In this document: positions 51,461 through 56,177 of the stretch, piece by piece
Layout: every line of letters begins with the position of its first letter
How positions within the stretch are numbered: position 1 is the first letter of the stretch
Source: Polyangiales bacterium
GTDB lineage: Bacteria; Myxococcota_A; Polyangia; Polyangiales; Ga0077539
Direction of reading: 5' to 3'
NCBI GenBank assembly: GCA_044229975.1
Contig: JBGARZ010000001.1
Location: 256,001 to 320,000 of the forward strand
DNA: 64,000 bases
The notes under the pieces: model-generated
The model's input: the letters and a program-made list of their open reading frames with translations, nothing else
The model's database searches: none
Told to the model about the DNA's origin: nothing
Program-made: the position numbers and the translations under genes

Positions 51461-51907
51461 TCAGCCGGTCTGCTTTACGGGCTCCGGATCGAGCAACGCG
51501 TTGAGCGACCGGCCCGCTTGTGGCGTTGCGAGGACTTCCTTGAGGGCCCCCACAAGTTCGGCCGAGTCTGATGCGAGTTGAAACCCGCCGTCGTAACGAA
51601 CCTTGACCGGGTAGCCAGCCGGGTCGGGCTCGAACTCGCAGAGCATCGTGGGCGCACGGCCTTGGCGTTCGAAGACGAGGGCTTGATAATGCCGCGTAGT
51701 CGATGCCTGTCTCACGTTGCCCGGAGGAACATACATCGTGATTACTGGTGGCCAGATGCGTTCGACCACACCGACCTCGCCGCCCGAGAGCAGTCGGATC
51801 TGAGCGTCGAGATCATCGACGATGGTCTTGATCTCGCGGAGGCGTGCGTCTGCATCGAGCGCTGCCTGTCTCCCCTGCTTCGCGGCCTCCAAGAAATTCT
51901 CACCCAT
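51461..51907 (-). CDS. Hypothetical protein coupled to the EEP nuclease gene
   Basis: 148 aa, 8-nt overlap with the EEP gene, GAGG RBS, lower GC; N-terminal helix then alpha/beta (AGYPVKVRY). Confidence 0.7.
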   Translation of the reverse strand: MGENFLEAAKQGRQAALDADARLREIKTIVDDLDAQIRLLSGGEVGVVERIWPPVITMYVPPGNVRQASTTRHYQALVFERQGRAPTMLCEFEPDPAGYPVKVRYDGGFQLASDSAELVGALKEVLATPQAGRSLNALLDPEPVKQTG

Positions 51908-52820
51908 CGTCTTCCCTCACTTCGGCAGCAGCTTGGTGAATGTACTCCAGCGTGACGACCAGCGGGAGGTGGTCGAGTTGCTCGTCCAGATACGCTCCAC
52001 GGCGACCGCGAAGGGAGTCGCCATGCCATGGAGCAGTCTCATCCTCGCGGAGTGTCCATCCCACTCCCTCGACGAGCGACGCCGACGCCAACACCTGATC
52101 GTAGGTTCGCCAACGGCTCTCGACGCCGCTTCGATAGAAGTGGGTCCCCGAGGATGTGGCACCGCGCAGGTGACCATCGAAAGGCACCCTCGCCCCGAGC
52201 CAACGCCAGGCTGCGTTGTAGAGCAGGTCCGAACGCTTGCGCACCTGGTCGATGTCCCTGGTTCCGTTGAGCAACGCCATGGGCGACTGAAAGGGTTCGG
52301 TGTTGAAGTCTCCCGCGATGAGAACGTGGTCGAACCGACGCTGCGATCCCACCTCAAGCGCGGCGCCCAGCATGATGGCAGCCTGACGCTGAAGGCGTCG
52401 CACATGGTCCTGGTCTCCCATCCCAATGGCCGGCCAGTGGCACAGTCCCAGTCCGAGGAGGTCCTTCGTCGGCAGACTCAACTCGACGACAAGCCCCGCG
52501 CAGATCTTGTGACGGCCGACCTCCGCCGGGACGAGTCGAGCTTGCTCCGCACTCACGACGCGGGTATCGAAGGCGATCACCAGATCGTGTGACACCTCGC
52601 CGCGCTGTCGCGGCACGAGAACGTCCCACTCGCCGTCCAGCCTCAGCCATCCCATCAGCATCCGCAGGGATGCGGCCGTCATCTCGCACAGGCCAATCAC
52701 CGAGCACTGCTCGTCGTCGATCAGCGCCCGCACGACTCTCGCGACCCCCGCGATCTGCGCCTCGGTCAGCTCGGTCCCACCGACGAACCCGGTGTTCCAC
52801 CACCCGAAGCGGAGCTTCAT
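51900..52820 (-). CDS. Endonuclease/exonuclease/phosphatase (EEP) family protein
   Basis: WWNT, IGLCEM, CHWP, AGDFNTEPF, YDQVLAS, DHLPL form a full EEP catalytic set; TATGAT lies 6 nt before the ATG. Confidence 0.88.
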   Translation of the reverse strand: MKLRFGWWNTGFVGGTELTEAQIAGVARVVRALIDDEQCSVIGLCEMTAASLRMLMGWLRLDGEWDVLVPRQRGEVSHDLVIAFDTRVVSAEQARLVPAEVGRHKICAGLVVELSLPTKDLLGLGLCHWPAIGMGDQDHVRRLQRQAAIMLGAALEVGSQRRFDHVLIAGDFNTEPFQSPMALLNGTRDIDQVRKRSDLLYNAAWRWLGARVPFDGHLRGATSSGTHFYRSGVESRWRTYDQVLASASLVEGVGWTLREDETAPWHGDSLRGRRGAYLDEQLDHLPLVVTLEYIHQAAAEVREDDG

Positions 52821-52905
52821 CTCGCGATCATACGGAAGCTCATCAACGAGACCCAGGCCGCAACCAGTCAACCTTCACGATGCGTGGCCGTCGTCCGGTG
52901 GCGGT

Positions 52906-55900
52906 TCAGCGCACGGCGCGCTCGTCCGCGATCTCCTCCAGTTCGACGGTGCACAGCCCGCTGCGCTCGGCCTTCACGTTGACCACCTTGAGCGCGGTGC
53001 CGGGCGCGAGCAGGTACTCCTCCTCGCCCGAAAACGCCGAGTACGCCCGCACGCCCACCGCCCGCGCCGGCTTCACCGCAAACAATGTCCGCTTGCCCTT
53101 CGCCCCCAGGAACGAGTGCGCCACCGACAGCTTCGCCGTGCACGACGACACGCCCCACCACGTCACCGTGCGGCCCGCCGGGTACTGCCCGCGCAGGTCC
53201 ATCGCGACGCCGCGCCACAAGGTCCCATCGAAGCGCTCGATCTTCTCCAGCGCCGCGAGCAGCAGCCGCAGGTACGGCCGAAACGCGTCGACGTTCGCGC
53301 GGTCGGGGTCGCGCAGCGCGGCGTTGACCTGCCGGTAGAAGCCCGAGTCGCAGGTGTACAGGTACAGCGCCGCCACCTCGTGCTCGTCGAGCGCTCCGGC
53401 GCCCGCGGCCAGCTTCCGACGCGCGAAGTCCGACGACTGCTGCGCGAAGTGACCGAGGCCCTTGATCTGCGCCGCAAGCGGGGCGACCGCATCGGCGAAG
53501 GCCACCGCTGCCATCGCGCGCACACCCGTCACCTCGGGCAGCGCCTGCTGCGGCTCCTCCTTCACCTCCTGGAGACGCTCCAGGTAGAGCTTGTGGAGGT
53601 CCATGGTGCGGGCGATGAAGTCACCCATGCGGTCGGCCTCGCCGGTCGACGATGTGGCCACGGCGGACTTGTTCCAGCCGACGCTCGGGAGCCAGTCGAT
53701 GGTCTCCATCGCGAGGCCCTTGAGGGCGGCGTTGACGGCGCCGAAGTGATCGCCGTCGCAGAAGATGTCGCCCTGCGCTGCGGGGTTGGGGTGGTCGATG
53801 TGACGCACCTTCACCGCGGGGTACTTCCGCTCCACGCGCTGCACCACCGACTTCAGCGCCTTCGCCGCCGTGCCCCACCACGCGAACACCACGCCCTTGT
53901 GCGCGGCATCACCGCTCCCCTGCTTGGCCTTGAGAATCTCCTCGACCACCTTCTCCACCACGGGTCGCCAGAACGCCGTGTGCCGCGCGATGGCGTCGGT
54001 GTCGCCGCGGCCCCCATCCGCACTCGCGGTGAGCGCCGCGTTGAGCAGCAGCACCCCCTGCGTCAGCATCGCCTGGAACCACTCCGGCGGCTGCACGGCC
54101 TTCTTCTTGTCGAGCAGCGCGCGGATGTCCGCGATGGGCGTCGCCTTGGGGATGCCGTACTTCGACATCACCGCCGCCTTGATGATGCAGCGGATGCTCG
54201 TGACCCTCCCGAACTGGCTGTCCTTCCAGTGGTTGAAGGTGTTGTCGAACATCGCGATGCCCGTCGCCGACTCCACCCGCGGATACGGGTTCTGCCCGAA
54301 CACCACGACCTTCCACTTCTCGGGGGGATTGGGCTTCAGCGCCTGGAACGTCAGCTCGCGCACCGGCACCACGTCGGGCCCACGCTTCGGACCGATGAAG
54401 TCCGCCGCGTCGCGCTGCGCCTCGATCACCGGCTTGAGCAGCGGCAGCCACGCCTCGCCGCCGCCCTCGAAGAGCTCGTCGAGCTGCAACCCCGACGACA
54501 CGCCCGGCGCGCTAGCCGCCTTCGCGAGGCGCTTGAGCGACCCGATCACCCGGTAGAAGGTCCCATGCGCGCTGAGCTGAACGTCGTCGGCGACGTAGCG
54601 CACGCCCGCCTCGCGCACCGCCCTCGGAACGAGCACCGGAACCGCTCCGTCGACGCGCTCACCATGCGCCGTCACGCGCAGCTTTCCGCCCTCGTGCTCG
54701 CAGGTGAGCAGCACGCCCGACCCGACCTCGGTGACCTCCGGCAGCGACTTCGCCGACCCGCCGCCCGCGCCGCGCGCGCTCAGGTCGGCGCGGCTGCGGG
54801 AGCGCCCCTGGTACGACTGATCACGCAGGATCTTCCGCGCGCTCCGGTCGAGGCCGCCGCCCTCCACGGCGTTGGCGAAGTGTTCGAGCTGCGAGACCTC
54901 CTCGGCGATCTCGTACTCCTCGTCCATCGCCCGCGCGCGCTGGTCGGCCGCCTCGCGTCGCAGCACCGCCGCAGCCTCCGCGCGCTCGCCCGCGTCCGAA
55001 CGTCGCACCGCGCGCTCCTTCGCGAGCGCCACGCGCAGGCGGCTCACGGCGCGCATCACGTTGGGGTCGGGCCGTTCGTCCCCGGCCGCCGTCACGGCCG
55101 CGCGCACGACGGCGTGCCCGGTGACTTCTCCCCGCTTCGCCTGCGCGGCCACGGGGTCGTACTCGTACTCGACGTCGAGGAGGTCGAAGTCGCCCGCCTC
55201 GTCGGGCGCGTGCACGGTGAGCGTGAGGGCGAGGTGGCGGTCTTCGCCGCCGTACACGTCACCTACGGGAACGGTCACCGATCCGTCGCTCTGCGGCACA
55301 AGCCCGCGCGCATCGAGGAGCTCGGTGATGGTCACGCCGCGGCGCGGGCGCAGCGTGACGAAGAGCCCCTGCGCTGCGACCGAGGTGATGCTCTCGCCCT
55401 CGATCATGAACACCTGCGTCGCGTCTTCGGGCGTCTCGATGAAGTAGAAGTTTCCGCGCCCGGCCTCGGCCATGCCGATGAGCAGGTCTTCGTTGAAGTC
55501 GAGGCCGAAGCCGAGGGTCGTCGTGACCACGCCGCGCACGGCTCGCGTCGCGGCCTGGGCGATGATGTCAGGCGTCGACGTGACGCCCACGTTGGCCTGC
55601 CCGTCGGTGAGGAGCAGCACGCGCTTGAGGTCGTCGGCCGCGTCGGGCCGCGAGAGCACGAGGTCGCACCCGCGGTCCCACCCGCCGTGCAGCGCCGTCG
55701 CGCCGCCGGGCCGCACCGCGCGGATCTTCTTGATGATGGCCTCCGGGTCGTCGACCTTCGTAGGCGCGACCAGCGTCTCGATGCGGTTGTCGTAGACCAC
55801 CACGGAGAGCGTGTCGGCGGGCGAGAGCTGCCGCACCAGCAGCCCCGCGGCCTCGGTGGCCTGCTTCAACGGCGCACCCGACATCGAGCCCGAGCGGTCG

Positions 55901-56040
55901 ATCACCACGCTCACCGACAGCGGCCGCCGACCGGGCCGTCGGGACGCGGCGTAGTCGCCGTGGAAGGTCAGGAGGAGGTCGACCGTGATGGTCTGGCCCG
56001 CGGGCAGCGCGGGGCGCGTGAGTCCGTACGAGAGCTCCAT
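52906..56040 (-). CDS. vWA + uracil-DNA-glycosylase-fold + ADP-ribosyltransferase fusion protein
   Basis: vWA MIDAS ([23 protein letters not shown]); UNG motifs ([42 protein letters not shown]...IDW); ART motifs (LYLYT...[28 protein letters not shown]). One uninterrupted ORF. Confidence 0.9.
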
Positions 56041-56177
56041 GCACGCTGGTGTATCGAAGCCCGGCGCACGCTGTCGAGAGGAGGCGTCGAGGGAGGTGTC
56101 AGGCAATGACCAGTTGATGGAGTACCGTGCGGCGATGACGAGAAGGTCCGCCACGTCACGATGACCCCGGTCGGTGC

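Follow-up and report, generated by a model that had tools for sequence, protein, structure and literature searches.

Structure of the locus

We analysed a stretch of 64,000 nucleotides from a Polyangiales bacterium (assembly GCA_044229975.1, contig JBGARZ010000001.1, positions 256,001 to 320,000), which as a whole is called the window and whose positions are counted from its first letter. Its minus strand carries a gene for a 1044-residue protein in which a domain resembling uracil-DNA glycosylase (UDG) is joined by a conserved helix to an ADP-ribosyltransferase (ART) domain. The UDG-like domain bears an Asn where the UNG enzymes of family 1 have their catalytic Asp, and comparison with relatives points to a likely function as an undescribed signalling switch that is triggered by DNA lesions, in preference to one in repair or as a decoy for inhibitors from phages. 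The features of the gene are as follows.

52906..56040, minus strand: whole gene, 1044 residues, ATG at 56040 and stop at 52906; Ig-like/vWA/helical module followed by the small beta domain, the UDG-like domain, the helix and the ART domain
54781..56040, minus strand: N-terminal beta-sandwich/vWA/helical module; vWA core with DxSGS at 55414-55911 (Pfam VWA, E 1e-13)
54505..54759, minus strand: small conserved beta domain (CxREGGKL...PRAVRE...GTFYR), 85 residues, located after the vWA module and before the UDG-like domain
53674..54489, minus strand: UDG-like domain, family-1 fold, insertion type, residues 518-789
54280..54297, minus strand: motif A GQNPYP, residues 582-587; N584 (54289-54291) aligned to the catalytic Asp
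54250..54252, minus strand: M597 of GIAMF (residues 594-598), aligned in sequence with the uracil-stacking Phe
54100..54180, minus strand: helical insertion KAAVMSK...KKK, residues 621-647, common to UNG of the Nitratifractor type
54040..54042, minus strand: N667 of GVLLLN (residues 662-667), pocket Asn retained (Asp in a paralogous subtype)
53776..53793, minus strand: motif B HPNPAA, residues 750-755; His kept, Ser changed to Asn, Leu changed to Ala (A754, 53779-53781)
53557..53646, minus strand: conserved long helix RMGxFIxxTxxLHxxYLERL lying between the folds of UDG-like and ART domains, residues 799-828
52909..53562, minus strand: R-S-E mono-ART domain of the cholera-toxin-like clade (Pfam ART, E 5.6e-11)
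53212-53214, minus strand: ART residue R943
53140-53148, minus strand: ART residues SSC, 965-967
53017-53025, minus strand: ART residues EEE, 1006-1008

Fold and active-site residues of the UDG-like domain

The closest solved relative of the UDG-like domain is the UNG of Nitratifractor salsuginis (PDB 5X3G; E 3.6e-14 with the single sequence and 4.8e-41 with a profile), and the PDB matches listed for the domain were family-1 enzymes. The 529-residue core comprising the UDG-like and ART domains, modelled with AlphaFold2 (pLDDT 90.4, pTM 0.80), aligned with family-1 UNGs at Z scores of about 20 (VIA; for 5X3G, Z 20.6, root-mean-square deviation 2.9, 233 aligned residues), and in this model the domain has the alpha/beta fold of family-1 UNG. 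The Pfam scan of the 1044-residue protein matched vWA and ART and gave no match to UDG, while the best score against the NCBIfam UNG models, 70.4 bits, was far under the cut-off of 162.

The preliminary description of the gene had singled out motifs A and B, with Asn at the catalytic Asp and Ala at the intercalating Leu. Both motifs are present as described and the substitutions proved conserved, as judged from a census of 310 distinct family matches of at least 38% identity, in which the number of sequences varies by column and residue equivalences rest on sequence alignment. At the position of the catalytic Asp 241 of 269 sequences have Asn, the others Ser (18), Thr (4), Ala (3) or another residue (3), and none has Asp; the position of the intercalating Leu is Ala in 267 of 267. 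The description had also held that the uracil-pocket elements GIAMF and GVLLLN are kept, which is correct for N667 of GVLLLN. GIAMF, on the other hand, places Met597, not Phe598, at the stacking Phe of UNGs (GLAF) and of 5X3G (GYAFID), and this position is Met in 257 of 274 family sequences and Phe in one. Three active-site elements (Asp, Phe and Leu) are therefore altered. The loss of the Asp and of the Phe are the distinctive changes; the missing Leu counts for little as evidence of inactivity, as it is also absent from 5X3G and from many phage UNGs (phage sequences that retain GQDPY yet carry HPAAESY, HPAS or HPAY; L081-L160). The Lys-rich insertion to which the description drew attention does exist at residues 621-647, but is not peculiar to this protein, aligning with an insertion in 5X3G.

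The remainder of the pocket (Q583, Y586, N667 and H750) is retained in the window protein, and across the family Y586 is found in 263 of 267, N667 in 273 of 279 and H750 in 261 of 269 sequences, the DNA-backbone contact positions S615 and G723 being largely kept. GQNPYP together with HxNPAAQGD was present in all 80 related genome loci (the best 80 of at least 560 GTDB relatives), so that neither chance nor assembly error accounts for the motifs. Thus the domain shares the fold, the pocket Tyr and Asn and the motif-B His with family-1 UNG and departs from it in the Asp of GQDPY, the stacking Phe, the HPSPLS loop and the NCBIfam score; by its defining motifs it is not a family-1 UNG, though derived from that fold. 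The genome of the window also carries an intact canonical UNG (GQDPYH/HPSPLS) and a family-4-type UDG.

The ART domain and the remainder of the protein

The ART part of the core model aligned with Tre1 (6DRH) and rat ART2.2 at VIA Z scores of 18.7 and 18.2, respectively. The Arg, S-x-S-like and ExE residues (R943, SSC and EEE) are kept in 79 of 81, and by sequence and model the domain is an R-S-E (ARTC-like) mono-type ART with intact-looking residues.

The vWA module is an add-on specific to the lineage of the window gene; its predicted model (pLDDT 88) was matched by Foldseek to 4FX5, ArnB, ITIH1 and Sec23/24 vWA modules. The small beta domain had no match in Pfam, PHROG or Atlas.

An EEP (endonuclease/exonuclease/phosphatase) gene and a 148-residue open reading frame (ORF) lie directly downstream (51461-52871, minus strand), and the pair recurs elsewhere in the genome (G000:C32:406804-408184). 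As the pair is not conserved next to any of 80 homologues, we rejected both genes as parts of the system.

Distribution and architecture of the family

A homologue search among proteins of 574-1827 residues gave 300 matches, and the best 120 of these contained GQNPYP 117 times. The 119 long homologues besides the query comprised 87 macro-UDG-ART, 26 vWA-UDG-ART and five UDG-ART proteins as well as one without ART, so that in 118 of 119 the UDG-like domain is fused to an ART, whose R/SS/ExE residues are intact. Carriers of the UDG-ART core are found among Actinomycetota, Myxococcota, Planctomycetota and protists, with Salpingoeca, Prymnesium and other protist entries among the shorter matches. 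Its occurrence is patchy: it was found in seven of 41 relatives of the window genome, in none of eight congeners, in five of 301 genomes of a phylum sample and in 36 of 201 Streptomyces genomes (about 18%), the window domain being 72-78% identical to those of all 36 Streptomyces carriers. No family member was found in viral contigs among the best 80 of 389 relatives, all of which were at most 29% identical; the viral representatives inspected had canonical-type motifs.

In a quick IQ-TREE run, from which five partial family rows were left out and in which 24 of 61 non-family rows were retained, the family formed one clade (SH-aLRT 99) nested among Asp-bearing insertion-type UNGs (97) and apart from canonical UNG. 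It grouped with the Nitratifractor UNG on a long branch and showed short branches across phyla within. Database labels of its members read only 'ADP-ribosyltransferase domain-containing', 'macro domain-containing' or 'uracil-DNA glycosylase'. Atlas gave UDG cluster matches below 0.9 and otherwise none, and the best share among sequencing runs was 0.28, with one RNA run at 0.07 that held short relative-like pieces only.

Several variants were seen alongside these architectures. One protein (P0003) has SAP and two tandem UDG-like domains and two (P0170 and P0173) combine WWE with a UDG-like domain, the carriers of SAP or WWE being apparently protist homologues. In P0248, a Pelomyxa protein, a canonical UNG is joined to WGR-PARP, OB and SAM domains. 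A paralogous subtype II without vWA (L171, L172, L173 and P0189) has GQS/TPYP, LVDASLT (pocket Asn changed to Asp) and HWHPA[AS]RD changed together, which resembles the cytosine-excising human N204D; it occurs together with subtype I in four genomes. Apparent frameshifts were noted between the vWA and UDG parts in one metagenome-assembled genome (L002/L177) and inside ART in one Streptomyces draft (L012).

Association with a macrodomain gene

A macrodomain gene adjoins the UDG-ART gene in 73 of the 80 loci, in 70 of them divergently and in three on the same strand (two of these fused), while the seven loci without an adjoining macrodomain gene are all vWA-fused. The two genes were present in the identical 36 of 201 Streptomyces genomes, an exact co-occurrence. 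Among the 41 relatives of the window genome the macrodomain was found in all seven UDG-ART carriers, and across 43 genomes UDG-ART never occurred without it. By analogy, this co-inherited macrodomain is likely the eraser of the ART product.

In the window genome the macrodomain homologue lies away from the UDG-ART gene, directly behind a WGR-PARP_reg-PARP gene. The latter opens an operon-like run (L178:4944-13759; G000:C38, about 252-261 kb) that continues with the same macrodomain family, a possible HEAT-repeat protein (weak match), a SWIM zinc-finger protein and a reverse transcriptase. In two Nocardia loci an A-family DNA polymerase gene adjoins the macrodomain gene (L020:4404-6104 and L037:4473-6152).

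Promoter motifs

Promoters of the PafBC (RecA-NDp) class follow the consensus tGTCgg(N10)tA(N3)T (PMC8635444). Among the 70 divergent actinobacterial loci strict matches were directed toward the macrodomain gene in 66, where their distance hardly varied, and toward UDG-ART in 22; the flanks contained three in 803 kb, for an expectation of 0.07. The motif also precedes both fused macro/UDG-ART genes. Under a relaxed rule, which was chosen after seeing the data, sites were directed toward the macrodomain in 70 of 70 and toward UDG-ART in 51 of 70 loci (0.14 expected), and 19 of the relaxed UDG-ART-directed sites lie 5-9 nt before an in-frame start (leaderless). Macro-directed sites occurred in all 11 named genera and UDG-directed sites in nine, kin among these not being independent. 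A control Streptomyces genome had 56 matches versus one for the reversed motif, and the 24 downstream ORFs scanned from the first 30 sites include recA, pcrA, dnaX and nth. The macrodomain protein SCO6735, whose gene has a promoter of the same RecA-NDp class, is induced by ultraviolet light (PMC5087735).

The window gene itself is preceded by a different element.

56048..56077, minus strand: putative sigmaA-like promoter TCGACA (56077-56072)-N18-TACACC (56053-56048), 7 nt before the ATG

Together with the start positions of homologues, this element backs the ATG at 56040 as the start. The 18-nt spacing is the same in close relatives (L002-L005 and L175), and the TCGACA-N18-TACACC-type pattern has nine matches in the genome, seven of them just ahead of ORFs. 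A short inverted repeat, GTCA-N5-TGAC, is located at 56098-56110 just upstream of the -35 element, with similar, non-identical palindromes in L003-L005. Neither a LexA-type nor a PafBC motif was found upstream of the window gene. With a housekeeping-like promoter and a macrodomain gene elsewhere in the window lineage, DNA-damage control is therefore indicated by motif for the actinobacterial relatives only.

Proposed function and alternatives

We give about an even chance to the following reading: the UDG-like domain acts as a sensor that binds lesions and cuts slowly or not at all, it is coupled to a mono-ART of the Arg type, and the macrodomain is the likely eraser, in a PARP-like form of signalling. 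The domain would bind DNA at a uracil-like (flipped pyrimidine) or abasic lesion, show little turnover there and stay bound, contacts to DNA being suggested by the kept residues S615, G723, R588, R617, K621 and H750. Once bound, it would bring in the ART or turn it on by way of the conserved helix 799-828, a candidate coupling element. The probable target of the ART is Arg on protein, given its ExE motif and its closest folds, Tre1 and ART2.2, and the macrodomain would reverse or clear the ADP-ribose product within a DNA-damage response. A role in DNA damage is pointed to by the partner macrodomain and by the DNA-damage promoter motifs in relatives. Human UNG D145N keeps 0.04% activity (PMC1919486), and an engineered D145N/H268N UNG still binds uracil-DNA and serves as a uracil sensor (PMC4756853). 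The suggestion in the preliminary description of a binding sensor or slow glycosylase coupled to ART fits this evidence, that is, the family-wide loss of the Asp, the nearly universal ART fusion and the separate UNG of the genome.

A bolder version, in which a natural 'dead-UNG' lesion reader directly activates the mono-ART, has its own macrodomain eraser with both genes induced by PafBC, and thereby forms a base-damage ADP-ribosylation circuit that bacteria and protists share and whose origin is independent of PARPs, with paralogues retuned to a different base (Asn changed to Asp), is put forward tentatively, as somewhat less likely than not.

Several observations weigh against the sensor reading. 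Besides the missing PafBC motif at the window gene and the late choice of the relaxed rule, 19 of the 70 divergent loci have no motif toward UDG-ART even under that rule, and PafBC sites of the control genome also precede the non-repair genes for RimO, MurB, S6 and an ABC transporter. The macrodomain occurs without UDG-ART in ten further relatives of the window genome, and its nearest match of known structure is remote (best E 4.7e-5). Arg-ADP-ribose is usually removed by ARH/DraG enzymes and not by macrodomains (PMC8120803), so that its reversal by a macrodomain would be atypical. In two loci (L220 and L242) stand-alone UNGs of the Nitratifractor type carry GEGPYP, where Gly takes the place of the Asp, together with HPYNLSF. 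The UDG part shows the higher invariance (45% versus 30% of columns), a figure that is biased because the loci were chosen by the UDG domain. Patchy presence, with no carrier among the congeners and 18% among Streptomyces, also fits a conflict system. Real turnover is possible as well, since the domain retains H750, N667 and Y586, and in SMUG1 an Asn at this position is productive (PMC1919486).

The last point leads to the strongest of the alternatives, a glycosylase that is truly active, either by an Asn mechanism like that of SMUG/MUG or with a different base specificity, and whose ART marks the abasic product or nearby proteins, which would make the protein bifunctional in repair and signalling. 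The His, pocket Asn, Tyr and Gln are kept in nearly all members, and 5X3G, which also lacks the Leu, was deposited as a uracil-DNA glycosylase. SMUG1 coordinates water through Asn85 (PMC1919486), and the combination of pocket Asp, Ser/Thr in motif A and His in motif B in the four subtype II sequences is reminiscent of cytosine-excising N204D (PMC11162499). However, the motif-A position drifts between Asn, Ser, Thr, Ala and Cys and is never Asp, unlike a catalytic Asn; the stacking Phe is lost, the His is replaced in eight of 269 sequences and a canonical UNG is already present in the window genome. We consider this alternative unlikely, while giving it more weight than any other.

An anti-phage or toxin-antitoxin function, in which the domain senses non-canonical pyrimidines (uracil or hydroxymethyluracil) in the DNA of an invader, cell arrest is brought about by the ART and the macrodomain acts as antitoxin, appears less probable still. 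It would agree with the apparently horizontal spread and the short branches across phyla, with the ART never being found without the macrodomain in the 43 genomes, and with the response of PafBC to single-stranded DNA, which infection could conceivably generate. Yet PADLOC gave no match for the UDG-ART protein, and a convincing defence neighbour (DpdF) was present in only one of 26 loci, where 14 of 137 neighbour proteins had any match and the remaining matches were generic, counts that have no matched control. The genes are mostly divergent and not operonic, and the high domain identity between the window and the 36 Streptomyces carriers is unlike an arms race.

In a further alternative the ligand of the pocket is a free small molecule (uracil, a nucleotide, nicotinamide or an ADP-ribose derivative), and control of the ART is metabolic instead of taking place on DNA. 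The loss of the base-flipping wedge and the ties of all conserved partner domains found (ART, macro and WWE) to NAD/ADP-ribose speak for such a small-ligand sensor; in view of the kept backbone contacts S615 and G723 and basic residues, the SAP fusion and the DNA-damage promoter motifs we regard it as very unlikely.

Least probable of all, and not supported despite a family-1 fold resembling UNGs solved with these inhibitors and a sensor-effector layout, is the earlier proposal of a decoy for phage Ugi, p56 or SAUGI that triggers the ART upon binding, because these inhibitors trap an apical Leu/Phe in a hydrophobic pocket and loop variation confounds inhibition (PMC3794593 and PMC10303552), whereas the corresponding Leu is Ala in 267 of 267 family sequences and protist members exist. 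When the UDG-like domain was predicted in complex with Ugi, separate runs gave 0.62, 0.29 and 0.01 (mark 0.32), an outcome used neither for nor against the proposal.

Significance

It is an open question whether the DNA-damage response of bacteria makes use of endogenous ADP-ribosylation, and in what way. Macrodomains induced by damage, SCO6735 among them, are known, while the writers that belong to them are unclear (PMC5087735). The family described here offers a concrete candidate writer-eraser pair with DNA-damage promoter motifs, present in some 18% of the sampled Streptomyces, together with a built-in candidate sensor; the question therefore becomes testable with one purified protein of 530 residues. 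If the sensor reading is correct, the fold of a repair enzyme would have been reused as an allosteric lesion sensor, yielding a natural labelling enzyme activated by uracil or abasic sites. Literature searches confined to open-access papers without their supplements found no description of a UDG-ART fusion; the terms 'uracil' and 'glycosylase' are absent from PMC8120803 and PMC9503650, and 'glycosylase' from PMC13036486 and PMC12945103.

Comparison with known systems

The UNG of N. salsuginis (5X3G/5X3H) shares with the UDG-like domain the fold, the PRxESA motif, SxRxxxK, the helical insertion and a motif B without Leu. It differs in the Asp of its GQDPYP, the Phe of GYAF and its motif B, HPYNHTF, and is a stand-alone protein of about 25% identity with no ART. 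This enzyme reportedly excises uracil and is said to be insensitive to Ugi. Canonical family-1 UNGs (E. coli Ung and human UNG) have the same fold and the same pocket Gln, Tyr, Asn and His, while Asp is replaced by Asn, Phe by Met and HPSPLS by HxNPAA in the window domain and its family. With MUG, TDG and SMUG1 (families 2 and 3) the domain has the Asn in motif A (N584) in common; in contrast to their open C5 pocket, where Gly replaces the Tyr of UNG (in SMUG1 according to PMC1919486), it keeps Y586.

The Arg-specific ARTs Tre1, rat ART2.2 and Vis resemble the ART domain in fold and in the R, S-x-x and ExE residues, but at only 15-23% identity; the window protein is UDG-fused and no secretion or delivery domain was seen in it. 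In DarT2-DarG and ScARP-NADAR, too, an ART is paired with a macrodomain, and the macrodomain protein SCO6735 shares the promoter class of the family. The DarTG-like linkage of ART and macrodomain genes holds for 73 of 80 loci, the two genes being not adjacent in the window. DarT2-DarG and ScARP-NADAR belong to another ART class with a different motif, whereas the family described here has ExE, an additional UDG-like domain and mostly divergent genes. PARP1 and the bacterial WGR-PARPs follow a logic of a DNA-binding domain, a helical segment, an ART and a macrodomain that the present family would share. Their sensor is a WGR domain or zinc finger instead of a glycosylase fold and their ART is of the H-Y-E instead of the R-S-E mono-type. 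If the sensor reading holds, the family would represent a sensor-writer-eraser circuit of the PARP type assembled from other components.

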